A stretch of 64,000 nt of DNA from Methanobacteriota archaeon (GCA_020696385.1 JAEHCQ010000001.1:129003-193002); one strand, 5' to 3'; shown: positions 16,301 to 60,384, counted from the first letter of the stretch. Numbers and translations are program-made. The notes: generated by a model not told the origin, from the letters alone.

Positions 16301-19300
16301 AATTGGCACCATCGTTTATTGGGATGAAGTAACTGTAGCCTCCTTGCTTTCCGGAGAGAATACCACAGTGACCTTCCTGCCATGGACTGCTGATTCGGAA
16401 GATAATTTCACGATTACCATAACCTCATCCCTGGCCAATGATGATAATACCATCAATGATGTAATGGCATGCCATATCGTCATTGATGATTATCACGATA
16501 TAGCATTGACTGGCTTCGGACCTTTCATTGACGGTGGCGTATACCAGACAGGGACGAATACCATGACCGCCTCGATAACGAACATGGGCACTATCGCGGA
16601 GATCGATATCACTGTAAATTGCATAATTTATGATTCCACGATGTCCATTGTGTATTTCAGAAATTCATTCATACCTCTCATCAATCCCGGCCAGACGATC
16701 ATCGTGACCTTCAGCCCGGATTGGACAGCGAATATTGAGGATGATTATAGGATATATTATGAATGCTGGCATCCACTGGATGATGATCCAACAAATGATA
16801 TTGAAAATATCTACATAACCGTGGATGAGTACCATGATATTGGTCTTACGACCACGCAACCTTTTGCAGATCTCGGAGTTTATCCAGCTGGAACCTACAC
16901 GATCGATGTGTCAATAGAGAATTTGGGAACTATCGACGAGTACGGCATGGAAGTTGTGTGCATGATCATCGATTCTTCCAGTGGTGTTGTTTACAGCCAG
17001 AACCTGACGATCGCCTTCATCGCCATGGGAGATACTATGATAATAACCTTCATTCCAGACTGGATACCATCAGCAGACGATTCCTACACGCTGATAGCCA
17101 CCGTGGGACTGGCCAATGATGAGAACATTATCAATGACCAGCACTCCACCCTGTTCTACATAGACATGACACCACCCACTGCAGATCCAGGACCTGATGA
17201 TTTCACCTTTGAGGATTCCATATATTTCTTCGATGGCACAGGCTCCTATGATCAACATGGTATCATGAATTACACATGGGACTTCGGAGATGGACAGATC
17301 GGATATGGGCCAGCACCAGATCACACATATTCCCTCCAGGGCATCTACTTCATCAATCTGACAGTGGCTGATGCCATGGGATTGACAGACACGAATATGA
17401 TGACCCTCATGGTCAATAATGTGAATCCGACAGCTGATGCTGGAATGGATATATCTATTCCAGAAGGTGATATTGTTAACTTCGACGCTTCAAACTCAAC
17501 TGACACGATATCCGATATACCCACCCTTGTTTACACATGGGACTTCGGGGATGGTAATACATCCAATTTGATGACCCCCGCTCACACATATTATTCTTCA
17601 GGAACCTACATGGTCACCCTGGAGGTCATGGACGATGATGGAGCGATCAGTTATGCTTACATCAATGTGACCGTGATAAATGTGGGACCAATAGCCGTTC
17701 CAGGAGGACCATACATGGATGATGAGGGAACCATCATATCCTTTGACGCTTCGGGATCTTATGAGCCTGGAAGCGACATCATACTCTATGAATGGGACTG
17801 GAACAATGACGGCATCTATGATGAGAGCTCGGTCGGACCATCAGCGAACCACACATGGTATGCCGCTGGTGTTTACGCCATATCACTGAAGGTCACTGAT
17901 GAGGATGGTCATTCACACGAAACAGGCACCAATGTGACGATAAATGATGTAGCTCCTGTTTCCGTACATGGAGGTCCATACAGCGGAAATGAAGGAACTA
18001 TCATAACCTTCAATGGCAGCAGCTCCTACGAACCAGGTGATGATATCACACTCTATGAATGGGACCTGGACAATGATGGAACATTCGAGACCATCGGCAT
18101 GGAAGTCAGTATGTCCTGGTTCACCGCCGGTGTCTACACGGTCGGACTCAGGGTGACAGACGAGGATGGTTCCTCCGATATTTCCACAACGACCGTGGAT
18201 GTCATTGACGTGGCCCCGGTCGCGATAATAATCGGAGGATCTATAGTGGTGGAGGAAGGAGAATCCATAATACTGGATGGCTCAAATTCCTATGAACCGG
18301 GAGATGATATAATTCTGTATGAATGGGATATGGATAATGATGGAACATTCGATCATACCAGCATCTCACCTCTCTTTGTCAATAATTGGGGCGCTCCTGG
18401 AACCTATACTGTCCTTCTCCAGGTAACGGATGAGGACGGATCGGTAGGTAACGAAACGACCATGATCATCATATCGAATGTGATGCCGATCGCCGATCCA
18501 TCTGGACCATACCAGGGATCTGAAGGACAGGCGATCTCATTCAATGCCGGAGCCTCTTATGAGCCTGGTGATGATATAATTCTGTATGAATGGGACTGGA
18601 ACAATGACGGGGTATATGATGAGAGCTCGGCAGTTCCAGGTATCACACACCAATGGGACGTCCCAGGAACCTACACCCTGCGCCTCATGGTCACTGATGA
18701 CGATGGTACAACGGACATGGCAATGACAACTGTGGTTGTTCATAATGTGGCTCCGATCCCAGTTCCTGGCGGACCTTATTCTGATCTTGAAGGAGCGGCG
18801 ATTGTCTTTGATGCCAGTGGTTCCATCGAGCCAGGTGATGACATACTGCTCTATGAGTGGGACTTTGACAATGATGGAATATTTGATTCCATATCCGGAA
18901 GCCCATTATCATCCATGACATGGTATTCGGCAGGGATGTTCAATGTCCTTCTAAGAGTGACAGATGCGGATGGATCCTCGGGTATGGCCACCGTGATGGT
19001 GACCATTTCAGATGTAGCCCCTGTTGCGGTTCTCGGTGGACCTTACACAGGTGATGAAGCATCGTCTGTCATGTTGGATGCTTCGGCATCCTCCGAAATA
19101 GGCAATGATATCATTCTCTATGAATGGGACTGGAACAATGATGGAACATATGACTTCAGTTCCAGCAACCCATGGGCTGCAAACACATGGTACACCTCAG
19201 GTGCTTACACCGTGTGGCTGAAAGTGACAGATGAGGAAGGATCAATTGATCTGTCTTCAGCAGTGGTGAATGTCAATGATATCGCCCCAACAGCCGATGC

Positions 19301-48414: not shown

Positions 48415-50402
48415 TTCCTTTTCATATACAATAAGGTCACGATACCGACCACGACCACAAGGACTATGATGATCCCCAGAGTGGATCCGGACTCGCCAAG
48501 TGAGCTTCTGGCAGGCTCGGTGGTGAAGGAGACGACCAGGCCATCCTTCAGTTGATTGCCCTGAAGGTCCATGGCCTCTGTTGACATTGTGACCACGTAG
48601 TATGTGAGATAGTCATAAGATGAGGATGGTATGAATGTCAGATCATTATCGGTCCATTGGAAGGTTCCGGTGACATTGTTGGATATTGTAAAGGCCTCTT
48701 CGACCGAGGTCCTGTTCATGGGCTCGGAGAAGGATATCTGGATAGTGGAATTGATAGCCACATCCATATCCCCATGCACCATATTTGTAGATACGATCTC
48801 GGGCGGGATAATATCTCCGAGGTCCGTGAAGACCACCAGGACATCGTCGTCGATCTCAACACTTCTTGGATTATCATCAAATGTCATATTCGGGCTCCAC
48901 ACTTCCACTTCCATGGTGTAATGGAAGAGGCCGGTTGAACTCACCCTGATCTTCTTGACCAGTAATGTCTCTGTAAAACCGAGAGCGTCGGTGGTGATAT
49001 TGTTGTTCTGAATTGTGGAAAGCTCTCTTACCTCGACAGTCGCGCTTTGAACGGGTTGGAGAGTGTAATTCTTCACCTGAACCTGGATACTGCCATATGA
49101 TACGAAATAACAATCATCGCCTGTCATCACCCTGGTCTCATTGACCGAGCCATTGTAAGATCTGGCATTCGAAGACTCTGCCAGATTCAGATCTCCATGA
49201 CGGGATGAATAGAATTTGGAATTGTAGACGTCGAAGGTGGAATTGACAGCGTAAACACCGTTCATATTGTAAGATATATTACAATTATCAATTATCACAT
49301 CATGGCAATCATAGAGGGTGATAGATCCCTGATTTGTGAGCAGGCCAGTGAAATTGGATTCTTGTCCCGAGCTCAATTGAACACCCTCAATCGTGGAGTC
49401 CTTGAGTCCGATATAATAAAGATCTTTGGCAGGAATCCCGTTGACTGAATTACCGCTCATGTTCAATACCACGTTCTTGGAATCATAAGGTATGTCGACA
49501 CCGACATCATTGAATTCCATACGATTGTTCGTGAATGTGGAGTTAGAGCCTATGAAACGCGTGCCGTTCCCCGCACAGGATCTTATCAGATTATCCTCGA
49601 TCAAAGGAGAACAGAAGAAGATGAATATCCCATCGTGGCAATGGCTGACAGTATTGTCCGCGATAATACTGGATGAATTCCAGGCAAGTATTCCAACAGC
49701 GCATAGCTCGATGAAATTATTCCGTATCTGGGCACCGGAATAAGCGATGATACCATGCCAGCAGGTGTTGATATGATTATCAAGTATGATTGGCATTGAT
49801 TTATTATCGCACAGGATCCCGGCAAAGAGCGAATTGTTCACATCACAATTCTGTATCAGGGGAGTGGAATTGGCTCCACAATAGATGGCGAAGAAATGGC
49901 TGTAAGCGATGATGGAATTGGTTATGACTGGAGAAGTTCCTTCCGAGCAATTCACGCCACCACTGGCAAATGATACATGCACTGTATCCAGAACGCAATC
50001 CTTGCTGGTCTCCATAAACACTATGCCTTCCCAATCCTGAGCAGCTGGGTTGGCCGAATCTGGTTTGAACCATATCTTATTGAATGGATTCAGTGGATCC
50101 TTACCGCGTGCGTCCAGAGTGCCAGCCACGTATAGCTTGGCACCCTTGCTGAATTTCATAACAACGCCAGTGTCAATGGTCAGATTAGCATCCACTTTTA
50201 TGACAATGCTATTCTTCACATTGTATGGGCTTCCGCCAATGTCCCAGGTGACTGATGAGGTTATATCATCAGTAATTATCGTACCGGGTTCGATAGCCCT
50301 TGTGCCATCGTCCATATCCACATCAGTGGGGATCTGGGAAGGTGGCAATTGCACTACCATGAATAGAACAAGCAATATGGCCATTATGCGGATGAAATTC
50401 AT
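48411..50402 (-). CDS. Secreted right-handed beta-helix (PbH1-repeat, NosD/pectate-lyase-like) surface protein with a C-terminal Ig-like domain and transmembrane anchor
   Basis: Signal peptide MNFIRIMAILLVLFMVVQLPPS. Repetitive N/G/I/C-rich coils (NSIIAYSHFFAIYCGANSTPLIQNCDVNNSLFAGILCDNKS...). C-terminal LGIIIVLVVVVGIVTLLYMKRK. Confidence 0.65.
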   Translation of the reverse strand: MNFIRIMAILLVLFMVVQLPPSQIPTDVDMDDGTRAIEPGTIITDDITSSVTWDIGGSPYNVKNSIVIKVDANLTIDTGVVMKFSKGAKLYVAGTLDARGKDPLNPFNKIWFKPDSANPAAQDWEGIVFMETSKDCVLDTVHVSFASGGVNCSEGTSPVITNSIIAYSHFFAIYCGANSTPLIQNCDVNNSLFAGILCDNKSMPIILDNHINTCWHGIIAYSGAQIRNNFIELCAVGILAWNSSSIIADNTVSHCHDGIFIFFCSPLIEDNLIRSCAGNGTRFIGSNSTFTNNRMEFNDVGVDIPYDSKNVVLNMSGNSVNGIPAKDLYYIGLKDSTIEGVQLSSGQESNFTGLLTNQGSITLYDCHDVIIDNCNISYNMNGVYAVNSTFDVYNSKFYSSRHGDLNLAESSNARSYNGSVNETRVMTGDDCYFVSYGSIQVQVKNYTLQPVQSATVEVRELSTIQNNNITTDALGFTETLLVKKIRVSSTGLFHYTMEVEVWSPNMTFDDNPRSVEIDDDVLVVFTDLGDIIPPEIVSTNMVHGDMDVAINSTIQISFSEPMNRTSVEEAFTISNNVTGTFQWTDNDLTFIPSSSYDYLTYYVVTMSTEAMDLQGNQLKDGLVVSFTTEPARSSLGESGSTLGIIIVLVVVVGIVTLLYMKRK

Positions 50403-50411
50403 ATGATCTGC

Positions 50412-51059
50412 TCATTTGTCAGTTTTTTTTGGTTTATCGTCGGCCTTTTCCACACGGGTTCTAAGCAATCCAGCTGCCCTGAGCTCTTTCCTCAGAGTCT
50501 CCACACCTGTGATGATGTCAGCTTCCTGCTTGGCACCGGTACATACGACCTTTCCTGATCCGAATAGAAGCATGACCACTTTTGGAACAGCGACCCTGTA
50601 CACAAGTCCCGGGAACTGCTCGGGCTCGTACTCCACCCTTTCCAATCCAAGAGTGATAGCTATCGCATTGAGGTTGAGATCGCTCTTCAGATCATAAACT
50701 GCGACGATGTTCTGGACTGTTATAACTGGTTCCTTGATGATTCCAGCCATGCCAGCATCTTCCAGCTTCTTACTCACTGTCTTGATAGTGGTCTGCACGC
50801 TCTTGATGGTCTTGGCTCCTGTACAATTTGCCTTACCGCTTCTGAAAAGTAGTATTGCTGTCTTCTCTGATTTCAGCCTGTAAACGAGACCAGGAAACTG
50901 CTCGGGCTCGTATTCCGCTCCTTCCAATGCAAGAGCGACTGCTGTGAGATCCAGCTTTTCTGCCAATACTGTCGAAGCAACGATGTTTTCGACGCTGACA
51001 TCGGTCGTCTGCACTTTCTTTGAATCCGCTTTCTTTGAATCTGATTTCTTTGCTGCCAT
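50412..51059 (-). CDS. tbp: TATA-box-binding protein
   Basis: Two direct repeats with EQFPGLVYR...LLFRSGKANCTGAK / LLFGSGKVVCTGAK, and a basic N-terminal extension. Confidence 0.95.
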   Translation of the reverse strand: MAAKKSDSKKADSKKVQTTDVSVENIVASTVLAEKLDLTAVALALEGAEYEPEQFPGLVYRLKSEKTAILLFRSGKANCTGAKTIKSVQTTIKTVSKKLEDAGMAGIIKEPVITVQNIVAVYDLKSDLNLNAIAITLGLERVEYEPEQFPGLVYRVAVPKVVMLLFGSGKVVCTGAKQEADIITGVETLRKELRAAGLLRTRVEKADDKPKKTDK

Positions 51060-51074
51060 TTTTAAACTCCCCTT

Positions 51075-51107
51075 ACTTTATATACTCTTTATATAGTCTT
51101 TATATAC
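51075..51107 (-). promoter_or_regulatory. Three tandem copies of TCTTTATATA(C/G) (TATA-box-like) 16-48 bp upstream of the tbp start codon
   Basis: CTTTATATAC TCTTTATATAG TCTTTATATAC seen directly. On the tbp strand this reads TATATAAAG three times. Confidence 0.6.
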
Positions 51108-51235
51108 TAATTTATCACGCGAGATAGTCTTACTGTTTAAATAGTATTTGGTTCAAAGTCCATATTTTGAATAATTGTACAATGCTCAAATCCAGGCCAA
51201 AATCTTGAAGTGTGTTGGGCCATTATACCTCGGCA

Positions 51236-51871
51236 ATGAAAGCAGTTATATTCGATCTGGATGGCACTCTATTGGACTCACGCCAAACCATAAGGCGTTG
51301 CCTCAATGCCGCGATAATGGAGTTTGGGGAAGAGCCATTTGAGGGGGAGGATCTGAAACAACTTATTGGCAGACACCTGATGGAGATCCTGGCCCTGAAA
51401 GGTCTGGGAACCGAAGAAGTTGCCGAAAGATATAGGCAGATCCAGATGGACACGTACCATCTGGACATGAAGATGTATGAAGGTGTGGTGCAGATGCTGG
51501 ATGCTCTGAAGGTGAATGGCCTATCACTGGGAGTGGCCACCATGAGAAATGGCCGAATTACAAGGGACATATTGGATGGTATCGAGATCGGCCATTATTT
51601 CAATGCCACTGTTGGAGTGGATGAGGCGGAGAGACCGAAACCAGAGCCGGATCAGGTTATAGAGGCCTGTAAGCTTCTGGGTGTGAGGGAAAAGGATTCG
51701 GCAATGGTAGGGGACACGGTCATGGATATCAAGTCTGGCAAAGCGGCTGGATGTATCGCGATCGGGGTCTCATGGGGGAATGGAAATGCACAGGACCTCG
51801 AAGATGCAGGCGCTGACCACATTTGTAATTCGATGAAGGAATTGGAGCAATTGCTTCTTGGCTTGATCTAA
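51236..51871 (+). CDS. HAD-superfamily hydrolase (phosphoglycolate phosphatase-like)
   Basis: MKAVIFDLDGTLLDS (motif I DxDGT). VGDTVMDIKSGKAAG (motif III/IV). The start is moved to the ATG at 51236; the track begins at 51212. Confidence 0.8.
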   Translation: MKAVIFDLDGTLLDSRQTIRRCLNAAIMEFGEEPFEGEDLKQLIGRHLMEILALKGLGTEEVAERYRQIQMDTYHLDMKMYEGVVQMLDALKVNGLSLGVATMRNGRITRDILDGIEIGHYFNATVGVDEAERPKPEPDQVIEACKLLGVREKDSAMVGDTVMDIKSGKAAGCIAIGVSWGNGNAQDLEDAGADHICNSMKELEQLLLGLI

Positions 51872-51911
51872 TATTATGTGTTATTGATCGATGATTTTTG
51901 CTTTGTCAAAT

Positions 51912-51955
51912 TTAAAAAAAAGGTGGGGCAGACGAACTGCCCCAAAGATTTTTGG
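51912..51955. terminator. Bidirectional hairpin terminator between the convergent HAD and ftsZ genes
   Basis: AAAAAAAAGGT-GGGGCAG-acgaa-CTGCCCC-AAAGATTTTTGG: a 7-bp GC stem flanked by an A-run and a T-run. Confidence 0.6.
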
Positions 51956-52082
51956 ATAGGTTGATCCTGAATGCTCTGTTTTGGCCAGATCCAGGATATT
52001 CTGAATCTGGCTCGGGCTGGAGTATGGGCGATTTTTTGAGTATGGTCGATTTACTGGCCATACTCATTATCTAGTTACATTC

Positions 52083-53129
52083 TCAGGTGATCATCGGTAT
52101 CGAGTACTGCGTCACCTGTGTTTGTTCGGACTGCATGGTCATGTAGGGGTCGGAGAATTCCACACCATTTACCACGGACATTATCTTTACCTCTCCGTGA
52201 TAATCATCATCGATCCTGGCACCGAATATCACATTGGCATCGGGTCCCATGAATTCCGTCATCCCGCTGATTATATCATTGGTCTGCTTCACAGTCAGAT
52301 CAGGTCCAGAGGTTATGTGTATGAAGGTACTGGAAGCACCTGAATAATCAACATTCAGAAGAGGATTGCTCAAAGCCTCGGCGACCACGGACATATGATC
52401 ATTGGAGGAATTTTCCGCATAGAGAATGGTGGATGTTCCGCCACAGCTCATTACAGTGCGAAGATCTGCAAAGTCCAGGTTTATCATGGAGGGTTTTAGT
52501 ATTGCATCACTTATGCTCTTAATGGTCTCGGATATAAGCTGGTCCATGACACTGAAGGCCTGACCAATTGGCAAGGAAGGTACCATTGTCAATAATCTAT
52601 TATTATCCATTATGATCGTACTATCAGTGGCTTGTTTCAGCTTGTCAATACCGATCATGGCTTTCTGCCTTCGACCTTTCTCAGCATCAAAAGGCGTTGT
52701 CACCATTCCGATAACGACTGAACCCATTTCCTTCGCGATCTGCGCCACGACCGGTGCTGATCCTGTTCCGGTTCCGCCGCCCATACCCGCTGTAATGAAG
52801 GTTATATCCGCTCCTTCTAGGAGTCTTGCGATCTCATCTCTGGCCTCTTCTGCACAATACTCACCAACCTCTGGATGTCCACCTGCGCCTCGGCCCTTCG
52901 TGGTCTTGCGACCAATAAGGAGCTTTTTGTCGGCGAAGATGGTCTTGAGGTGTGCCTCATCGGTGTTGATGGCAATGGTCTCGGCTCCGTGAACACCAAG
53001 ACGTCCCAGTCTGTCCAGACTGTTATTGCCACCACCGCCGCAGCCAACCACCACTATCCTGGGGTCAGCTATGAGTTGCTCCATCGGCGAGGAGTACTGC
53101 AATGCATCGTCTACTATTTTTAATCCCAT
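52083..53129 (-). CDS. ftsZ: Cell division GTPase FtsZ
   Basis: VVGCGGGGNNSL, GAGGHPEVG, the tubulin signature ITAGMGGGTGTGSAPVVA, and NTDEAHL. The preferred start is MGLKIVDD at 53129. The track ORF extends to 53225 through a non-conserved leader. Confidence 0.9.
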   Translation of the reverse strand: MGLKIVDDALQYSSPMEQLIADPRIVVVGCGGGGNNSLDRLGRLGVHGAETIAINTDEAHLKTIFADKKLLIGRKTTKGRGAGGHPEVGEYCAEEARDEIARLLEGADITFITAGMGGGTGTGSAPVVAQIAKEMGSVVIGMVTTPFDAEKGRRQKAMIGIDKLKQATDSTIIMDNNRLLTMVPSLPIGQAFSVMDQLISETIKSISDAILKPSMINLDFADLRTVMSCGGTSTILYAENSSNDHMSVVAEALSNPLLNVDYSGASSTFIHITSGPDLTVKQTNDIISGMTEFMGPDANVIFGARIDDDYHGEVKIMSVVNGVEFSDPYMTMQSEQTQVTQYSIPMIT

Positions 53130-53220
53130 ATTTATCCATCCTGTTTGGAGCAGTAATTTTAGATAGGAAGCCCCGGAGGGAGCCCTAACTATGATAAAGT
53201 GCATTTCCAATCGCCTTCGT

Positions 53221-53247
53221 ATCACTAGCGATTAGAAGAACTAACAG
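53221..53247. promoter_or_regulatory. Palindrome-containing 27-bp direct repeat, copy A (ATCACTAGCGATTAGAAGAACTAACA)
   Basis: The core ATCACTAGCGAT is a 10/12 palindrome centred on CTAG. It lies about 95 bp upstream of the ftsZ start. Confidence 0.5.
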
Positions 53248-53465
53248 ATCCCAGTTCATATATCTGGCAAGTGCTCGTTCAATGAGAAGGTGTACTGCTC
53301 CGTAGCACCTTTTCGTGCATCCCATTCGAGAAAATTCTGTGCGGGTCTTTGGCGACCCTTGATAGAGTTTTCTCGTCCCTGATCCAATACCCTATCCCTA
53401 TGATATTGGACCCTGACAAGACTATGTTTCCCTTCGCCTATTTTTCTAATCGCCTCGGTTCTTAA

Positions 53466-53492
53466 TATCACTAGCGATTAGTTGAACTAACA
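53466..53492. promoter_or_regulatory. Palindrome-containing 27-bp direct repeat, copy B (ATCACTAGCGATTAGTTGAACTAACA)
   Basis: 25/27 identical to copy A and 245 bp from it, just downstream of the RHH gene stop. A third partial copy, TATCACTAGCGTTATTGTTG, is at 54085..54104. Confidence 0.5.
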
Positions 53493-53525
53493 CACATCCA
53501 GTTATCTTATCAACCGAGTGTTTGT

Positions 53526-53849
53526 TCAAGGTTCCTGTGAATCCTGCTCGATGGTTCTTCGAAGCTTCATGCGGACATAGTCACGCACGGCATTACGGAC
53601 CGCGTCGTCCACGGAGATAGCGTCTCCGTCGTGAACGAGCTCTTCGAGCTTGACCACATTTCCCTTAGGCAGTTCGACTGTCATTCGAGTTATGTGCTCC
53701 GGTGTGATATGCGTTTCAACGAATTCATCGATGGCGGCCCGGACCACGTCGGATATATTGGTGTACTGGCCCTTGTCAATTAGTATCTGTAGGGCTTCTA
53801 ATTTATCCACGGGTATCCTGACTGTCACTCTCTCTGATTCTTTTGCCAT
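53526..53849 (-). CDS. Tandem ribbon-helix-helix (CopG/Arc/MetJ-type) DNA-binding protein upstream of ftsZ (CdrS/CdrL-like position)
   Basis: From the ATG at 53849 (preceded by AGGTG): MAKESERVTVRIPVDKLEALQILIDKGQYTNISDVVRAAIDEFV (a beta-strand then two helices) and a second copy, MTVELPKGNVVKLEELVHDGDAISVDDAVRNAVRDYV. The track ORF runs to 53954. Confidence 0.65.
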   Translation of the reverse strand: MAKESERVTVRIPVDKLEALQILIDKGQYTNISDVVRAAIDEFVETHITPEHITRMTVELPKGNVVKLEELVHDGDAISVDDAVRNAVRDYVRMKLRRTIEQDSQEP

Positions 53850-53965
53850 GATCGCACCTAGTTTTTCGCCTTGTCGGACAAATTTATCGTTTCTGTCCGA
53901 CAGGTATATGACAAAGAAAGTATATAAAGTCTTCGGGGAGAGTGCATTGTTCACTTATTGTTGGT

Positions 53966-54047
53966 CGAAACCTCTATAAGGACAGATGGCGATTCACTTA
54001 GGCAAGCGTAGTCATGCCCCATAGTGAAGTCTGGCTACCTAGTAAAA
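53966..54047 (+). promoter_or_regulatory. Conserved BRE/TATA-like promoter plus leader module, copy 1 (CGAAACCTCTATAAGGACAGATGGCGATTCACTTAGGCAAGCG...)
   Basis: Shares the core CGAAA(A/C)CTCTATAAG(G/A)(A/G)CA..(T/G)GG(C/A)GATTC(A/G)CTTAGGCAAG with modules 2-5; module 6 is more degenerate. It lies directly upstream of small gene 1. Copies 1 and 2 are near-identical over about 85 bp. Confidence 0.6.
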
Positions 54048-54614
54048 ATGGTGGAAGAGATGGAAAAGAAAATTGTAACAGTAATTATCACTAGCGTTAT
54101 TGTTGTATTACTAATGTCCATCATTTTCTATGTGATAATACCTGATAATTCTGAACCAATAGAGCAGATATATGAACCAAAATGGACTAAAGCTGATTTT
54201 GAACAGCCCGGATTTATCATTCAAAATATTTCAGAAGGGCATTGTATCATCCATTATTATCTGTCATATTCATATTCTCCCAATAGGCTTCAACAATTAT
54301 TTGATTATCATGAAGAATTTGAGAATCAAACAACAATAATATGGATAGATGAGCTTCGGGATTCTGGTTACTTCGAAACAGCTGATTATTATTGTGAGAA
54401 TTATAGTGATATTCATTATAATGTTGGATTGTGTGTTGTAATAACCAGCGTATATAATATCGAATACAATGAGACTGTATATTATTACAAAACCTTTCGC
54501 CAGATAGATTATGAAAATATTGAAGATGGATATCAAAAGGGATTGACGGATATTCAGAAAGGTGTTCAAGAGGCTATCGATATACACAATGGTATTATTC
54601 CACCACCTGAATAG
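54048..54614 (+). CDS. Small type-II membrane protein (N-terminal transmembrane helix, Cys/Tyr-rich extracytoplasmic domain), unknown function; first gene of the six-gene array
   Basis: MVEEMEKKIVTVIITSVIVVLLMSIIFYVII then a 150-aa soluble domain. The track begins at a GTG (54024) inside the conserved upstream module, so I prefer the ATG at 54048. Confidence 0.55.
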   Translation: MVEEMEKKIVTVIITSVIVVLLMSIIFYVIIPDNSEPIEQIYEPKWTKADFEQPGFIIQNISEGHCIIHYYLSYSYSPNRLQQLFDYHEEFENQTTIIWIDELRDSGYFETADYYCENYSDIHYNVGLCVVITSVYNIEYNETVYYYKTFRQIDYENIEDGYQKGLTDIQKGVQEAIDIHNGIIPPPE

Positions 54615-54640
54615 AGCCAGTCCGCCCCGAGTAAGGGGGA

Positions 54641-54736
54641 CGAAACCTCTATAAGGGCAAGGGGCGATTCACTTAGGCAAGCGTAGTCATGCCCCCGTAG
54701 AAAGTCTGGCTACCTAGTAATAATGGAAGAGAGAAT
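54641..54736 (+). promoter_or_regulatory. Conserved promoter/leader module, copy 2
   Basis: CGAAACCTCTATAAGGGCAAGGGGCGATTCACTTAGGCAAGCGTAGTCATGCCCCCGTAGAAAGTCTGGCTACCTAGTAATA. Confidence 0.6.
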
Positions 54737-55381
54737 ATGGAAAGACCTATTCTGAAAAAAATAGTCGCAATAGTCATAATTCTAATTGTTTCCATTTTAA
54801 CTCTTGAAGCATCACTTTATTATTATTCTGATTATATTGAAGAGAAGGAATATCGAGAAGAAATAGAAGCCCGTGATCCAATTGGCCTGGATTATGTGTG
54901 TTTGACAAATACACATGGAGTCATGCCTGAAATATTTGTAGTTTATGAAGATGGGACATATTACGACCTCATAATTGACGATATTGTTAGCCAATATTAT
55001 GAACCAGAATATCAGATAACTACACAAAATGAATGTGAAGCAGTGTTGAATGATTTAGATGTACAAATGGGCACACCTTGGCTTGATGATTTTGCGAATC
55101 ACACATATTTTATGAAAGCTAAGAAAGGGATTCTTGAGAATTATACTGGCTTATTTAACAATAGTAAGATGGTTGAGGAGTTTGTAAACTGTGAAAACGG
55201 TTACTCATTATCCGCATCTCATGATGTGGGCTGGCACTCTATTGGGATACGAATGAACAATACAGTTCATAATGTTTCTCTATATGGTGGAGGAGGACCT
55301 AACGCTTTTGAATATTATTATCAGATTATGGATAACTTATGGTATGAGCATAGTTTTATTAGCCAAAAAGAGTACGAATGA
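54737..55381 (+). CDS. Small type-II membrane protein, unknown function (second gene of the array)
   Basis: MERPILKKIVAIVIILIVSILTLEASLYYY (a transmembrane helix) then a 180-aa Cys-containing soluble domain. Confidence 0.55.
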   Translation: MERPILKKIVAIVIILIVSILTLEASLYYYSDYIEEKEYREEIEARDPIGLDYVCLTNTHGVMPEIFVVYEDGTYYDLIIDDIVSQYYEPEYQITTQNECEAVLNDLDVQMGTPWLDDFANHTYFMKAKKGILENYTGLFNNSKMVEEFVNCENGYSLSASHDVGWHSIGIRMNNTVHNVSLYGGGGPNAFEYYYQIMDNLWYEHSFISQKEYE

Positions 55382-55429
55382 GGCCTTGAAACCCAATACA
55401 AGCCAGTTTGCTTCGAGTAGGGGATTGGA

Positions 55430-55476
55430 CGAAAACTCTATAAGGGCAGTTGGCGATTCACTAAGGGAGCGAGTGG
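55430..55476 (+). promoter_or_regulatory. Conserved promoter/leader module, copy 3
   Basis: CGAAAACTCTATAAGGGCAGTTGGCGATTCACTAAGGGAGCGAGTGG before the ATG at 55477. Confidence 0.55.
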
Positions 55477-55677
55477 ATGGAAGAGAAAATCGACAATGAT
55501 AAAACATTTCGAAAGTACAAAATCTATATGTCTATAATCTGTTATTTACTCGCATTTGGACTGTTTGTAATTTCTTATTATACCGATTATGTAATTATCG
55601 AATTAGCAATATTTTCTTTATTTTTTATTATATCTGGCACTGCGATATTTTTATCGATTAAATATGATATCTTATGA
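55477..55677 (+). CDS. 66-aa two-transmembrane small membrane protein (array gene 3)
   Basis: MEEKIDNDKTFRKYKIYMSIICYLLAFGLFVISYYTDYVIIELAIFSLFFIISGTAIFLSIKYDIL. Confidence 0.5.
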   Translation: MEEKIDNDKTFRKYKIYMSIICYLLAFGLFVISYYTDYVIIELAIFSLFFIISGTAIFLSIKYDIL

Positions 55678-55689
55678 ACAAGTGACTCA

Positions 55690-55756
55690 TGAATGCCTCG
55701 CCCGAAACCTCTATAAGGACAATGGACGATTCGCTTAGGCAAGTGGAGGGGTGTGA
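55690..55756 (+). promoter_or_regulatory. Conserved promoter/leader module, copy 4 (with the upstream GAATGCCTCGCCC block)
   Basis: GAATGCCTCGCCCGAAACCTCTATAAGGACAATGGACGATTCGCTTAGGCAAGTGGAGGGGTGTGA. Confidence 0.55.
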
Positions 55757-55966
55757 ATGGGTAAATTACAACGAATTATAGAATATGATGATCCATTTTA
55801 TAAAATTGTACTCTTATTCATATTTATATTCATTTTGAAGGTTATAGATGATTGGTTGCGAGAACAATTTGGTTATTGGCAAGGTTTTGTAATATTAATA
55901 ATAGGTGTAATTATAATCATATTGTTATTGAAGTTCATACGAGATAAGATAAGTAAAACACCGTAG
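55757..55966 (+). CDS. 69-aa two-transmembrane small membrane protein (array gene 4)
   Basis: MGKLQRIIEYDDPFYKIVLLFIFIFILKVIDDWLREQFGYWQGFVILIIGVIIIILLLKFIRDKISKTP. Confidence 0.5.
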   Translation: MGKLQRIIEYDDPFYKIVLLFIFIFILKVIDDWLREQFGYWQGFVILIIGVIIIILLLKFIRDKISKTP

Positions 55967-56007
55967 CTCAGACCTGCTCGGAAGCAAAGAGCCAGCGTAG
56001 AGCCTGC

Positions 56008-56063
56008 GGATGCCCCGAAAACTCTATAAGAACAGTGGACGATTCACTTAGGCAAGCGGAGGG
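56008..56063 (+). promoter_or_regulatory. Conserved promoter/leader module, copy 5 (with the GGATGCCCC block)
   Basis: GGATGCCCCGAAAACTCTATAAGAACAGTGGACGATTCACTTAGGCAAGCGGAGGG before the ATG at 56064. Confidence 0.55.
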
Positions 56064-56297
56064 ATGTCGATTTCTGATTCAGAAAAATCAAATATTCTTA
56101 AGAAGCCAGTAACTATTAAGCGAGTTCTTCTTAGTACAATGCTTTTTGTATTTGGATTCATAGCAATAATGTTTTGGTGGATATATTTAGAAGGTTTATT
56201 TAATGAAGCACTTATTATTCTAGCTATTGGTTTATTTTGTATTTTATCGGGAATCATTTTGCTATTGTCTGGTGAAATCGGCAGGTACCAATTATAA
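56064..56297 (+). CDS. 77-aa two-transmembrane small membrane protein (array gene 5)
   Basis: MSISDSEKSNILKKPVTIKRVLLSTMLFVFGFIAIMFWWIYLEGLFNEALIILAIGLFCILSGIILLLSGEIGRYQL. Confidence 0.5.
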   Translation: MSISDSEKSNILKKPVTIKRVLLSTMLFVFGFIAIMFWWIYLEGLFNEALIILAIGLFCILSGIILLLSGEIGRYQL

Positions 56298-56363
56298 CTC
56301 AATATAGACATCCCGTAGCGCAGACCTGGCCGTGAACGTTTTATTAACGACGTAAGGCCCCGT

Positions 56364-56423
56364 GGATGCCTCGCCCAAAACCTCTTTAAAGATCGATAGT
56401 GATTCACTTGAGAGGGAAAGAGG
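56364..56423 (+). promoter_or_regulatory. Conserved promoter/leader module, copy 6 (more degenerate)
   Basis: GGATGCCTCGCCCAAAACCTCTTTAAAGATCGATAGTGATTCACTTGAGAGGGAAAGAGG before the ATG at 56424. Confidence 0.5.
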
Positions 56424-56684
56424 ATGAGATACGAGATCATTAAAAAGAATATCAAAGAAGCGAAAGATAATCTATCCAAATCAGAATACTTCAATCTCAA
56501 GATCAAAGCCAGTATACTCCCATTGTTCTTTTTCATGTGGTTCTTCGCAGGCCCTTACATTCTTTGGGACGAGCCTTTTGGAAGCCCATTGAACATCATC
56601 TTCACGATCTGTGGGATAATTTCTTTCATATTCCTGCAACATTATATGACTGGCTTGTTCCATATTCGAATGAAGTTCAAATAA
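56424..56684 (+). CDS. 86-aa two-transmembrane small membrane protein (array gene 6)
   Basis: MRYEIIKKNIKEAKDNLSKSEYFNLKIKASILPLFFFMWFFAGPYILWDEPFGSPLNIIFTICGIISFIFLQHYMTGLFHIRMKFK. Confidence 0.5.
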   Translation: MRYEIIKKNIKEAKDNLSKSEYFNLKIKASILPLFFFMWFFAGPYILWDEPFGSPLNIIFTICGIISFIFLQHYMTGLFHIRMKFK

Positions 56685-56866
56685 TATTTTCCGAATTCCA
56701 CATACTGCATCTCCCTCGTGTGTGTGTTATATAACAATTACAAATAGATTTAAGTATAACTTCAATAATTGGTATTATGGATGGGTTTTGCACTCATATT
56801 AATGGGTCCATACTCACAGATAATGAGATAACGTGTCAGGAATGACATGCGAGACTCAAAACAAGG

Positions 56867-58696
56867 GTGATGAATATGAGAAAAATATTTGCGACCGTAC
56901 TGGGAATGATGATGCTATTGTCAATGGCATCCATCATGGCAGTTGGCGACATAGAGCCAAATAATAGCTTTGGACAGGCCGACTCCACCTATGACGGTGA
57001 TATTATATACGGAACATTGAACGAATACTCAGATTATGCAGACTACTACGAGATATGGCTGGATGTCGGAGATGAGATCACCATAACCATGACCGGAACT
57101 GGTGACGACTTTGATATAGACCTTTACGAAGGAGAAGACTGGCTGGTAGACTATTCGGTGAATGCTTTCTCAACCGAATCTATTGTTTACGAAGCGGTTT
57201 CCAGTGACTATCATTACATAATCCCATATGCGGAAACTGGCTATGGAGATTACACACTTAACGTAGATGTGGATGATGGGGTCTACGTTCCACCATATGA
57301 AGAGCCAGGCTCAGGCGGTGTCGAAGGCACCGGACCAGGCGCGGAAGTTCCAGACTGGAACATCGGCCAGGGATGGAGCTTTGGAAACATTGTCGATATT
57401 GAGGACGAACTTGGCACGGAATTGGAACAGGGACTTCAGGAACTGGAGAACATGGGATTCGATACCAACCTGGAGATCAATGGTGGAATTGGAGCTTTCT
57501 TCGGAATAGAGGTCGTTGATGACGACGTCATGGTCAATGGAGAAGAATGCTACGATGTCGAGGTCTATGGTGCCCTGGGTATCGATCTCGGAATAGAGGC
57601 GGATGTCGATGGTTCCACAGCATTCCTTGGCTCAACTATCACGGTCGATGGAGTAGGAGATGGAAAAGCAAAGGGCGAGGCGGTCTTGGAAGGAAACATG
57701 TACTTCACAACAGACCAGCTGGCCATAGCCAAGATAGACCTGACAGTTACAGCGGATCTCAAAGCAGATGTTCACATAGATGCCACAATCGAGGCAGAGG
57801 GAGAGAAAATGGATATCACGGCTGATGCTTCGATCAGTGTGGATGATGTCGAGATACAATTCATACTCAGCTTCGATCCTCCACTGAAGATATTCGACTT
57901 CCCAATAAAGGAAGGCGATGTTTGGTACGTGCCACACATGGACACAGAGGTTAGCGGTTCATTGAATGCACAGGGAACGGTAAAAACTGAAATAACAGCA
58001 ACCATCCCCGGAGAGCCAGCAATGGATGAGTCTGATACAGTTGATCTATCTAATGAAATTGGCGACAATGACTTCTTCGAGATCGTACCTGGTGGACCAG
58101 GCGATTGGTATGGAGAAGGTGGAGGAACAGAGTTCACATGCACAGACCTCATTGGTGACAATATCTACATAATCGAAACAAGCGCGGATGATGCAATGGC
58201 CTTCATCGACCTTCCAGGAACAAGGCAGCTCGACAGTATATTGGACCCAACATCCATGATAGGCGATTCATCAGCAGGTGTGGAATTCGATGCAAACTCG
58301 GGATTCGTAACTGGAGTGACGATGAATGGCGAGGTCATGACCGATACCGTCACAATGGAAGAGGTCAAGGACTTCACAGCTGATCCTCAGGGAGAAGTTG
58401 CTGACGTGACCGGAGGAGCAGGAGGAGACAGTGGAATATTCGGTCTCATCCTGATCATCATAATCGTGGTCGTCGTGGTCGTGGTCATGGTCGTGGTCAT
58501 AAAGGGCAGACAGAAGCCCCAACAGCCACAGTATCAGCAGCAACCATACCCACAACAGCAACCGTACCAGCAGCAACCATACGACGGGCAGCAGCAGAAC
58601 TACCAGCAGCCGCCGCCACCACCACAGCAGCCTCCTCAGCAATACCCGCCACAGGAGAACCCGCAGCAACCACCACCGCCACCACCACAGCAGTGA
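56867..58696 (+). CDS. Secreted surface protein with an N-terminal PPC (pre-peptidase C-terminal-like) domain, an acidic central region, a C-terminal transmembrane helix and a Gln/Pro-rich cytoplasmic tail
   Basis: The likely start is the ATG at 56876 (MRKIFATVLGMMMLLSMASIMAVG), which is a signal peptide. DIEPNNSFGQADSTYDGDIIYGTLNEYSDYADYYEIWLDVGDEITITMTGTGDDFDIDLYEGEDW matches the PPC pattern. IFGLILIIIIVVVVVVVMVVVIKG is the transmembrane helix. QQPQYQQQPYPQQQPYQQQPY...PPPPPPQQ is the tail. Confidence 0.75.
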   Translation: MMNMRKIFATVLGMMMLLSMASIMAVGDIEPNNSFGQADSTYDGDIIYGTLNEYSDYADYYEIWLDVGDEITITMTGTGDDFDIDLYEGEDWLVDYSVNAFSTESIVYEAVSSDYHYIIPYAETGYGDYTLNVDVDDGVYVPPYEEPGSGGVEGTGPGAEVPDWNIGQGWSFGNIVDIEDELGTELEQGLQELENMGFDTNLEINGGIGAFFGIEVVDDDVMVNGEECYDVEVYGALGIDLGIEADVDGSTAFLGSTITVDGVGDGKAKGEAVLEGNMYFTTDQLAIAKIDLTVTADLKADVHIDATIEAEGEKMDITADASISVDDVEIQFILSFDPPLKIFDFPIKEGDVWYVPHMDTEVSGSLNAQGTVKTEITATIPGEPAMDESDTVDLSNEIGDNDFFEIVPGGPGDWYGEGGGTEFTCTDLIGDNIYIIETSADDAMAFIDLPGTRQLDSILDPTSMIGDSSAGVEFDANSGFVTGVTMNGEVMTDTVTMEEVKDFTADPQGEVADVTGGAGGDSGIFGLILIIIIVVVVVVVMVVVIKGRQKPQQPQYQQQPYPQQQPYQQQPYDGQQQNYQQPPPPPQQPPQQYPPQENPQQPPPPPPQQ

Positions 58697-58719
58697 TGGA
58701 TGTTGTAGATTGATAAAAT

Positions 58720-58765
58720 ATCCGAGTGTGTGAAAAACGCACTCGGATCCCTTTAATATTTCTCA
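58720..58765 (+). terminator. Hairpin plus T-rich terminator after the PPC-protein gene
   Basis: ATCCGAGTG-tgtgaaaaacg-CACTCGGAT followed by CCCTTTAATATTTCT. The TATA-like TTTTTAATATTTTAAG for the next gene follows. Confidence 0.55.
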
Positions 58766-58800
58766 CATGTTTTTAATATTTTAAGACAATAGCACCTCCT

Positions 58801-60384
58801 GTGTTAATTACCATTCTGGACGGATATACAGATGAGCCATCGAGGCTGGGAGTTCCTCCCTTCATCGCAGGATATCCCCGATACATCGCGGGAGCCGTGT
58901 TCTCAGCTGGCCATGATGTGGAATACATGACGATAGATGAGTGGAGAAAGGGCAGATCGCCTTCCTCCAACCTATTGTTCATAATTGCCAATGCTAATGT
59001 TCCCGGCAAATACCTCAGGGGAACCCCAATATCAGAAAGAGAACTCATGAATATCAGGAAGGATCATGAAGGCCAGGTGCATGTTTGGAGTTCCCTGGGA
59101 TCGAAAGGAGATCCGGACACCTTGGCTTATGACATTCTCGTGAACGATCACAATGAGCCAAGAAGAAGAACGATAAAAGAATGGAAAGAATGGTCCGAGG
59201 CTGGAGCCAGGGTATTGGAACAGCATCCGGACTTCCCCCAGCCGGCGATCATGGAAATCGACATGTCCTTCGGATGTCCCAGATACGTGTCTGGGGGTTG
59301 CAGCTTCTGCCCGGAGATCGGATTCGGCCAGCCTGTTTTCAGACCCATAGATGACATCGTATCCGAGATGCAGGCACTCATGGAGCAAGGGGCGATCAAT
59401 TTCAGACTGGGTGGCCAGTCCTGTCTTTTCACTTACATGACGGAGGAGTTGGGCAAGGACGCTCCAAGGCCGAATGTCAAGGCTCTGAAGGAATTATTCA
59501 AAAAGATCGGCCAGCTCAAGGGCATCGAGGTCCTACACACGGACAATGCCAACCCGGGAATAATGGCCAACCACCCGGATGAGACAAGAGATATCCTTGA
59601 TTCTCTTGTCAAGGTCTGCACTGGAGGAAATCTACTTTCAATGGGTATGGAAAGCGCGGATCCAGCGGTAATACGGGCGAACAATCTCAATGCAACTCCT
59701 GATCAGGTCATGGATGCGATCAGGATGGTGAATGAGGTTGGCAGCGAGAGAGCGGAGAATGGAATGCCAAAGCTGCTGCCTGGATTGAACCTGGTATCGG
59801 GTCTGGAAGGCGAGACCAAAGAGACATATGATCTGAACTTTCAATTTCTCAAAAAGGTGCTGGATGAAGGGCTTATGCTGAGAAGGATAAACATAAGGCA
59901 GGTGGCTCCCACGAGGAAGGACTTCGGCCCATCACGTTTGAAAAAGGATTTCATCAGGTTCAAGAGTAGGGTGAGAGAGGAGATAGATGCGCCCATGCTG
60001 AAGAGGGTGATACCTGCTGGCACGATATTGAGAAATGTCTATATGGAGACCAATAGGGGAAAAAGGAGCTTCGGGAGGCAGATCGGTACTTATCCGATAC
60101 TAGTGGGCATGGAGTATGAAGTTGACCTTGAAAAATTCCACGATCTTATAATAGTCTCGCACGGTCAGAGAAGTATCACTGGCATTGAACATCCCTTTGA
60201 TATCAATAAGGCGAACATGCAGGCACTCTCTTCACTGCCTGGCATTGGGAAGAAAAGAGCGGCAAGGATAATCAGATCCAGGCCATACGGTTCGATTGAA
60301 GAATTGGAAAAGGTAATAGAAGATCCTTTGGTGATGGAAAGTCTTGAAGCCATTGGACTTGCATTCAGCCAGCATACTGATTGA
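58801..60384 (+). CDS. YgiQ/UPF0313-like radical SAM protein with a C-terminal helix-hairpin-helix motif
   Basis: GTG start. The N-terminal [29 protein letters not shown] resembles the YgiQ N-domain. The Cys cluster [16 protein letters not shown] has CX7CX2C spacing. The C-terminal [30 protein letters not shown] is the HhH. Confidence 0.7.

Follow-up and report, generated by a model that had tools for sequence, protein, structure and literature searches.

A probable strain-variable array of small membrane-protein genes behind copies of a promoter-like module in a Methanobacteriota archaeon

A 64,000-nucleotide stretch of DNA from a Methanobacteriota archaeon (GCA_020696385.1, JAEHCQ010000001.1:129003-193002; hereafter the window) contains, at positions 53,966 to 56,684, six consecutive genes for small membrane proteins, each preceded by a copy of the same promoter-like module. 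We consider that this locus is probably a strain-variable cassette array, in which the shared extended promoter would both express each cassette and serve as a recombination scaffold. The module was found in arrays only, the genes behind it differ from genome to genome and the breakpoints of similarity fall inside the module itself. The array has on its left a ribbon-helix-helix (RHH) gene and on its right the gene for a surface protein.

A bipartite module with promoter-like geometry

All six copies are on the plus strand, measure roughly 45-60 nt and stand ahead of a membrane-protein open reading frame (ORF), with a copy-to-copy spacing of 273-789 nt; the same tandem layout is present in two related loci, L008 and L014. 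A repeat search placed them in one family of direct repeats (D2; copies at 53961, 54636, 55425, 55698, 56011 and 56371, 71-100% identity over 42 nt). A 27-nt degenerate core gave five exact matches in the window as compared to 0.01 expected from shuffles, with no match outside the array, and a profile built from 23 copies recovered exactly the six copies with 44-54 bits. Repeat search, core match and profile thus confirm the preliminary description of this DNA, in which six co-oriented modules had been placed before six membrane-protein ORFs.

Alignment of 24 core-anchored copies from four genomes, to which the copy of the close relative L024 was added later (25 copies, of which 23 are full and two are terminal half-modules), revealed a bipartite module made of CGAAACCTCTWTAAGG, a variable 9-nt spacer and GATTCACTT. 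Conserved positions read C-GAAACCTCT(A/T)TAAGG, followed by the G-rich spacer and GATTCAC(TT). The distance between the two boxes is fixed in 22 of the 23 aligned copies, the exception being L014_9005, which has a 1-nt deletion in the spacer. The sole variable position of the left box is the W in T(A/T)TAA, at the centre of the TATA-like element, and the spacer is the most variable stretch of the module. Context blocks upstream (GGATGCC, YCCGAGCAGG and AGCCAG) and the leaders downstream are present in subsets of copies only.

Archaeal promoters have a B recognition element (BRE) at about -33, a TATA box at about -27, a proximal promoter element (PPE) at about -10, an initiator (INR) and a Shine-Dalgarno (SD) sequence of the form GGDGRD (PMC5316973). 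The module consensus runs in the order CGAAA-CC-TCTWTAAG-G-N9-G-ATT-CAC, which agrees with the make-up of an archaeal core promoter, namely a BRE, an 8-bp A/T-rich TATA box, a further A/T-rich element some 16-18 nt away and a start codon within a short leader. With the BRE set at CGAAA and the TATA box at TCTWTAAG, ATT would occupy about -11 to -9, and GG-C-A would give a pyrimidine-purine step close to +1; the GATTCACTT box, with its A/T at about -10, extends to about -3. The predicted start site is followed, within a leader of 10-16 nt, by an SD sequence (GGTGGA or GGAGGG) and the ATG. Start codons are located 31-61 nt beyond the core in most copies, the window ORFs begin 46-95 nt after their module copy, and the L008 modules include a conserved SD/ATG context. 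The promoter of the divergent RHH gene, 31 nt from the module, has the matching form CGAAR-NN-TYTWTAW. Sequence and geometry therefore fit the earlier proposal of a BRE/TATA promoter with a short SD leader, and the module reads as an extended archaeal core promoter that would be active ahead of each gene. It shares with the generic archaeal core promoter (PMC5316973, PMC4983044) the order and spacing of elements, the short SD leader and the A/T tolerance in the TATA centre. Ordinary archaeal promoters, in contrast, do not keep about 25 specific positions across unrelated genes and genomes, and the GATTCACTT box exceeds their plain A/T-rich PPE.

No conserved fold could be identified in the module: RNAalifold on 23 copies gave 0 pairs and no covariation, single-stranded DNA folding of five intergenic regions on both strands gave z-scores of -1.19 to +1.26 against shuffles with no excess, and Rfam returned no match at E <= 1 in 50000-60000. 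Local inverted repeats are missing within and beside the modules, and there is no symmetry between the two boxes. An attC-like or structured-RNA identity was rejected on the grounds that there is no consensus structure, folding equals that of shuffles and Rfam is empty. From the lack of conserved structure we conclude that the module is read by proteins as a duplex and that it is neither a hairpin of attC type nor a structured leader. Derivation from a miniature inverted-repeat transposable element or another transposon was rejected as well, because the modules have no inverted repeats within or flanking them and their copies are confined to arrays.

Copy 1 (53954..54012, +, 50.6 bits) reads CGAAACCTCTATAAGG-N9-GATTCACTT; it is the orthologue of the sole L024 copy and lies back to back with the RHH-gene promoter. 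On its 3' side is a long-leader variant (54003..54059, +, GGCAAGCGTAGTCATGCCCC...AGTCTGGCTACCTAG), which is also present at copy 2 and at copy 8198 of L014, with a right-flank identity of 0.80 between copies 1 and 2 and 0.73 between copy 2 and L014_8198. The long leader of copy 2 (54630..54687, +, 53.9 bits) reaches to 54736. Copies 1 and 2 had been called identical over about 85 bp; they are in fact 87% identical over 89 nt, with an exact run of 32 nt. Copy 3 is at 55414..55480 (+, 50.1 bits). Copy 4 (55686..55752, +, 54.1 bits) and copy 5 (55998..56065, +, 52.9 bits) carry the pre-BRE blocks GAATGCCTCGCCC and GGATGCCCC, respectively; of the last three copies, to which a GGATGCC(TCG)CCC block had been ascribed, copy 4 deviates with its GAATGCCTCGCCC. 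Copy 6 (56357..56426, +, CAAAACCTCTTTAAAG...GTGATTCACTTG) has the lowest profile score (43.9 bits), in agreement with the earlier remark that it is more degenerate. After the sixth gene, the profile search found no degenerate half-module at E <= 1.

A tRNA 5'-half-like block, CCGTAGCTCAGACCTG, is located at 55961..55976 (+), where it covers the last six bases of the fourth gene including the stop codon and then 10 nt of spacer. Its second copy is at 56313-56328, so that the second CCGTAGCGCAGACCTG block begins at 56313 and not at 56315 as first given. ARAGORN found no tRNA and the block recurs within long leaders; identity as a tRNA fragment was rejected and we treat the block as one of several mosaic intergenic blocks.

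Cassette turnover and boundaries inside the module

A scan of 185,579 species genomes gave one true relative, L008, a contig from a metagenome-assembled genome (MAG) of Thermoplasmata that carries six complete copies and one half copy; the matches L001-L007 and L009-L012 in the genome collections were rejected as chance single matches. A metagenome scan added L013, with one copy. L014 (together with L026) and L024 were retrieved through homologues of two flanking genes. L014 is the orthologous locus; ten complete copies and one half copy lie there, with the RHH-FtsZ genes on one side and the genes for the PPC surface protein and radical SAM on the other. In the close relative L024, whose RHH belongs to the window's 90% cluster and whose RHH-side intergenic DNA is nearly identical to that of the window, a single copy precedes, and would drive, a bPH-domain gene. 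Both loci are syntenic with the window on both flanks. L025 stops short of the array and L026 duplicates L014, and neither represents an independent array. Relatives with 66-74% RHH identity have the RHH-FtsZ pair; the module was not found in them, nor were analogous arrays with another repeat found in these module-less relatives.

A profile search of 245 kb, comprising the window and the related loci, recovered copies in arrays alone. Phage and plasmid collections searched by blastn gave no match to the module, and a viral or plasmid origin was rejected after two scans of viral contigs yielded chance 17-mer matches lacking the right box. As copies were found in arrays only, the module is array-specific across the genomes examined and limited to a narrow clade; neither the window, the species-genome scan nor the 245-kb search showed it to be a common genome-wide intergenic repeat, an outcome which the preliminary description had foreseen as fatal to its proposal.

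The L013 array start adjoins a restriction-modification (R-M) gene of Eco57I/N6_Mtase type (728-2827, +, GC content at third codon positions (GC3) 0.26) and not cdrS, so that the arrays are not bound to a single genomic context. Directly upstream of the first module, L014 (9780-9905, -) and L013 (about 300-430, -) have a pre-array element of about 125 nt, about 85% identical and containing CGCTGTCRGACAAA, which is not present in the window or L024. L013 also has a hairpin of about 24 bp with one mismatch at 486-547, for which the Rfam matches are sub-threshold only. The L008 and L026 contigs start within a module, and nt 1-420 of L025 appear unrelated, its PPC gene being 100% identical to that of the window; assemblies appear to break or turn chimeric at module repeats.

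The genes behind the module differ in each genome and nearly all are orphans. Even between the window and the close relative L024 the cassette content is entirely different. Membrane association is common to them, with at least one predicted transmembrane (TM) segment in 23 of 24 module-driven genes. The architectures comprise a beta-helix protein with a C-terminal TM tail (PGF-CTERM-like as read by eye), a bPH domain, type-II proteins and proteins with two to four TM segments. Only 3 of the 28 array proteins match Pfam or PHROGs: a NosD-type beta-helix (L008), bPH (L024) and a Zn-ribbon, the last being a module-less gene inside the L014 array. Among the 28 cassette proteins no PADLOC match and no Pfam relevant to defence or immunity was found. 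A few families recur, namely b3/b6 within L014 (80% identity) and a3/a8 within L008 (34%), and a9 of L008 is 33-35% identical to b3/b6. The b3/b6 pair has dS = 0.16, dN/dS = 0.65 and no indels, suggesting a coding sequence in rapid evolution. In L008 (3626-5133) one module is followed by four genes (a6-a9) with no module between them and only GAGGTGGAAGAAATG-type start contexts, which indicates that a cassette can carry several genes.

Sequence comparison places the cassette boundaries between the TATA-like box and GATTCAC, on four lines of evidence. The first is the b3/b6 pair, where about 90% identity extends from GATTCAC through the gene and its 3' flank to the left box of the next module (...CGAAACCTCT), while the spacers on both sides show about 7 mismatches in 10 and an indel as compared to about 1.5 predicted from dS. 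Secondly, the terminal copies of L008 and L014 keep the left box only, the profile aligning to positions 20-43 and 12-39. Thirdly, the window and L024 are nearly perfectly homologous up to CTCTATAAGG and similarity falls off beyond it. Finally, how similar two copies are in their left flanks shows no correlation with how similar they are in their right flanks (r = 0.07, Mantel p = 0.16): L014_8546/7343 share 0.97 on the left and 0.37 on the right, L014_9005/7802 share 0.34 and 0.93, and window copies 1 and 2 share 0.34 and 0.80, the leader of window copy 2 being found in L014 too, ahead of an unrelated gene. Taken together, these observations suggest that the left half of a module moves together with the cassette before it, and the right half with the cassette after it.

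Composition sets the cassettes apart from the surrounding genes. The region has a GC content of 0.31-0.39 against about 0.47 in the flanks, bearing out the earlier statement that it is AT-richer. GC3 is 0.23-0.27 in the first five window cassettes (w1-w5) and 0.50-0.57 in host genes; the corresponding values are 0.23-0.37 and 0.55-0.62 in L008, and 0.22-0.33 and 0.60-0.67 in L014. The L008 host gene with GC3 0.62 encodes a multi-TM CDF transporter, so that the low cassette GC3 is not a membrane-protein artefact. Intergenic modules have a host-like GC of 0.45-0.56. Judged by codon composition, the cassettes look foreign.

All six window genes are on the plus strand. Gene w1 (54060..54614, 184 aa, GC3 0.25; alternative starts at 54024 or 54051 give up to 196 aa) and the orphan w2 (54737..55381, 214 aa, GC3 0.27) encode type-II membrane proteins. 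The remaining four encode proteins with two TM segments: w3 (55477..55677, 66 aa, GC3 0.25), w4 (55757..55966, 69 aa, GC3 0.24), w5 (56064..56297, 77 aa, GC3 0.23) and w6 (56424..56684, 86 aa, GC3 0.53). Topology prediction agrees with the preliminary description, assigning one N-terminal TM segment to each of w1 and w2 and two to each of w3-w6, which have in common a charged N-terminus followed by a TM hairpin. All-against-all BLASTP detected no similarity among the six proteins, and the small ORFs have a coding signal, each of them being open with P = 0.0016-0.0092 when dinucleotides are shuffled. The absence of a coding signature, which the preliminary description had named as a further ground for refutation, was thus not observed. 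Its view of the genes as an accessory array, co-oriented and made up of unrelated membrane proteins, is supported. For w2 no homologue was found among 5.8 billion proteins, and structure prediction without an alignment gave a predicted local distance difference test score of 40. A single relative of w1, P0063, was found (30% identity); its N-terminus, MEEKMEE, resembles module-linked starts. Gene w6 combines the most degenerate module with a host-like GC3, as compared to 0.23-0.27 in w1-w5, and may be the oldest and most ameliorated cassette.

Readings of the array and its flanking genes

In the reading which we favour, the array would be lodged with the conserved cdrS-ftsZ operon on one side and the gene for a surface protein on the other, each cassette comprising one gene, occasionally several, and coding mostly for orphan small membrane or membrane-anchored extracytoplasmic proteins, with a copy of the bipartite module at every cassette junction. 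Each cassette would be transcribed from its own module copy, and the set would thereby be co-regulated, most likely by a factor binding the unusually conserved GATTCAC box. No T-tract terminators were found between the cassettes, and read-through probably occurs as well for this reason. The module copies would also supply the homology for duplication, replacement, deletion and exchange of cassettes. With exchange points between the TATA-like and GATTCAC boxes, an incoming cassette would automatically gain a complete promoter. Exchange could rely either on homology through the boxes of 9-16 bp or on a site-specific recombinase encoded elsewhere; a core site of the classical tyrosine-recombinase type is disfavoured, as the spacer varies and symmetry is lacking. 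As a conjecture, the products modify the envelope in a strain-specific manner, for example in surface variation or in immunity and exclusion against viruses or competitors. The membrane enrichment, the hypervariability, the fast-evolving surface neighbour and the R-M methylase of L013 point to such an envelope or conflict role.

Several observations weigh against this reading. The function of the products has no support from homology, as PADLOC gave no match and Pfam and PHROGs are uninformative on role. Promoter activity is deduced from sequence, TCTWTAAG matches the TATA consensus weakly, and the exact form of the module is absent from the other host promoters of the window except that of cdrS. 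Terminal half-modules are seen in two arrays (L008 and L014) and in neither the window nor L024. Homogenisation of modules within a genome is weak (0.63 vs 0.60 identity, p = 0.009), boxes of 9-16 bp are short for homologous recombination, and the overlap region of a classical tyrosine recombinase would not usually vary as this spacer does. The low GC3 could reflect relaxed selection on young genes and not a horizontal origin. The sample comprises four independent arrays, all from MAGs.

A considerably less probable reading, which we hold as a tentative possibility, is that of an unrecognised archaeal capture platform unrelated to integrons, with the double-stranded extended core promoter as its site and exchange in the spacer, turnover being driven by an unlinked recombinase or by recombination coupled to the transcription pre-initiation complex. 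Each captured cassette would regain a complete promoter under common regulation, and the proteins turned over would be strain-specific ones of the envelope, of immunity or of exclusion. Marginally behind it, and doubtful, stands an integron-like capture system, in which the module would be the double-stranded att site of a recombinase encoded elsewhere, circles would insert at the spacer and the promoter likeness would be secondary or co-opted. The co-oriented short ORFs, the conserved repeat, the foreign-looking orphans, their fast turnover, the fixed chromosomal position, the terminal left-half sites and the breakpoints within a window of roughly 10 nt between two conserved boxes are all what such a system would leave, and the architecture parallels that of the Bacteroidales rAID-1 arrays (10.1101/471110) and of clusters of attC sites lacking integron-integrases (CALINs; PMC9668308). 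However, Pfam identified no recombinase or integrase within about 12 kb of the window array or at the L008, L014, L024 and L013 loci, and the module has no attC-type hairpin, no R/L boxes and no inverted symmetry between its boxes. The presumed crossover spacer is its most variable part, whereas tyrosine recombinases usually need identity in the overlap, and the left box fits a BRE/TATA, including the A/T tolerance at the TATA centre.

It is unlikely that the locus is a family of tandem paralogues, in which a unit of promoter and gene was duplicated in place and was never mobile, the coding part diverging past recognition under relaxed or diversifying selection, or arising de novo from AT-rich spacer DNA, while purifying selection kept the promoter. 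A continuum of similarity (b3/b6 80%, a3/a8 34%, a9 against b3 33%, w1 against P0063 about 30%, the rest undetectable), the high dN/dS of 0.65 in one young pair (b3/b6), the common topology of w3-w6 and the genome-specific dialects of the module would follow from such a history. It accounts poorly for cassette architectures that are fundamentally different, and for an 89-nt leader of 87% identity joined to the unrelated w1 and w2 and, in another genome, to a third unrelated gene. The GC3 of the cassettes is about 30 points under that of host genes, whereas the modules resemble the host in composition; left flanks are sorted independently of right flanks, and the close relative L024 carries an unrelated single cassette.

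More improbable still is one operon with a single upstream promoter, with the module as an intercistronic element acting in processing or stability, as a context for translation re-initiation or as a site bound by a chromatin or regulatory protein. The genes are co-oriented with short spacers and no T-tract terminators between them, and the L008 module keeps an SD/ATG context. Against this, there is no conserved RNA structure or covariation, and the best-conserved part is the BRE/TATA-like box, located 30-45 nt ahead of the start codon, and not the ribosome-binding site. Copy 1 lies in a divergent intergenic region without an upstream transcript, and in L024 the module is the sole promoter candidate for the bPH gene.

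Least likely of all is that the RHH protein is a dedicated regulator of the array through a GATTCACTTAGGCAAG operator, as first proposed: it adjoins copy 1 divergently in the window, L014 and L024, and in haloarchaea CdrS regulates multiple targets (Liao et al. 2021, PMC8406309), but the RHH-ftsZ pairing is invariant in the module-less relatives L015-L018, the L013 array start adjoins an R-M methylase instead, the CCTTGTCNGACA box of the RHH promoter and of the RHH-ftsZ spacer is absent from the module, and of the proposed operator GATTCAC(TT) is conserved across genomes whereas AGGCAAG is specific to the window.

The RHH gene itself (CopG-type; 53526..53849, -) is on the left flank, outside the array. 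Its domain was correctly recognised (PF01402, E = 1e-8), and matches to PF01402 and PF17723 were obtained. RHH immediately precedes ftsZ, in the same orientation, in 7/7 loci (window, L014-L018 and L024), with or without an array, as in the cdrS-ftsZ2 arrangement, which is conserved across Archaea (Darnell et al. 2020, PMC7439475). From its sequence and neighbourhood the gene appears to be the cell-division regulator cdrS, the orthologue in a cdrS-ftsZ operon. The likeness to the cdrS-ftsZ2 operon (PMC7439475, PMC8406309) concerns this flanking gene only and not the array, and at the loci examined no evidence of a link between CdrS and the module was seen. The idea of the RHH protein as regulator is attractive yet probably wrong, and the cdrS identity corrects it.

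The cdrS promoter (CGAAGACTTTATAT, 53922-53935) and an inverted pair, TGTCGGACA (53872-53880) and TGTCCGACA (53894-53902), together occupy 53872..53935 on the minus strand, the pair overlying the predicted RHH start region. This CCTTGTCNGACA inverted pair is probably an operator of CdrS or RHH type. A CCTTGTCAG box around 53390-53400 is kept in the RHH-ftsZ spacer of four genomes (window, L014, L015 and L016). The same spacer contains a 32-nt direct repeat (53215-53246 and 53461-53492, 88% identical) bracketing about 246 bp that are missing from L014, L015 and L016. Within the bracketed segment, upstream of ftsZ, is a weak module-like GAAAACTCTATCAA (53359-53372, minus strand), which was rejected as a seventh copy since the pattern match had no profile-search support.

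On the right flank is a PPC-domain surface protein (56873..58696, +) with a C-terminal TM segment and a P/Q-rich tail, and this border is conserved in L014 and L024. The protein is 50% identical between the window and L024 (L024 10001-12085), while the RHH proteins share at least 90% identity and the intergenic DNA next to them hardly differs, which suggests that the neighbouring surface gene is itself hypervariable. Within about 12 kb, the Pfam neighbours of the array are TBP, NosD-like, HAD, FtsZ and RHH to its left and PPC, radical SAM and DUF11 to its right. The TBP gene (50412-51059, -) has an N-terminal extension of about 110 aa, and the synteny of FtsZ, HAD, TBP and NosD-like is kept across relatives. 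Further away, an ORF of 4903 aa lies at 7326-22037 of the window; the radical-SAM gene of L014, L024 and L025 likewise has giant HHH/CLIPPER/Zn-ribbon proteins as neighbours.

Comparison with known systems

In a literature search we found no description of such a promoter-bounded cassette array in Archaea. Should the module serve as promoter and exchange site alike, this would explain an immediate and coordinate expression of newly acquired genes, and CGAAACCTCTWTAAGG-N9-GATTCAC would be a sequence handle for finding further arrays. The cassettes themselves constitute a reservoir of small, so far unexplored envelope proteins from Archaea, probably mediating interactions at the strain level.

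The architecture is closest to integron/CALIN arrays and to rAID-1, and the defining features of both were looked for here without success. Like integrons and CALINs, including the archaeal ones (Ghaly et al. 2022, PMC9668308), the array has tandem co-oriented short orphan ORFs separated by a repeat, an off-host composition, variable content at a fixed locus and boundaries within the repeat; its six copies, 273-789 nt apart, are within the limit used for such arrays, which calls for two or more sites separated by less than 4 kb. Integrons are, however, defined by IntI, a tyrosine recombinase with an additional domain, and no IntI is found near the array. Their attC sites are imperfect inverted repeats (R''-L''...L'-R') that fold as single-stranded DNA hairpins, which the module lacks, and their cassettes are typically promoterless and expressed from Pc, whereas the module is promoter-like and lies 5' of each ORF.

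The rAID-1 arrays (Ross et al., 10.1101/471110) are alike in their co-directional low-GC genes, intergenic repeats, genome-variable content and small unannotated proteins. They are defined by a 5' XerD-like recombinase, whereas the 5' neighbour of the present array is RHH (window, L014 and L024) or an R-M methylase (L013). They contain homologues of type VI secretion system immunity proteins, none of which was found here by PADLOC and Pfam among the 28 cassette proteins, and they belong to Bacteroidales, whereas the array described here is archaeal and no toxin system was linked to it.

A conserved promoter or leader recombined onto unrelated or highly diverged envelope genes, which brings about co-regulation as well as diversity through recombination, is also known from other families. 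These are the Borrelia erp/ospEF/elp genes with their 'upstream homology box' (of these, this term alone was confirmed in the literature), the Mycoplasma vsp/vlp genes and the Plasmodium var genes with their ups sequences. They are usually dispersed on plasmids or at chromosome ends, often with a common signal peptide. Those families are bacterial or eukaryotic, whereas the present array is archaeal and tandem, and its junctions lie inside the core promoter. For stockpiling and shuffling accessory genes, the principal device known from prokaryotes is the cassette array, and the bacterial-type integron is the sole such platform reported so far in Archaea; the locus described here has the population-genetic hallmarks of a cassette platform in its fixed site, its turnover between near relatives, its foreign-looking orphans and its boundaries within the repeat.

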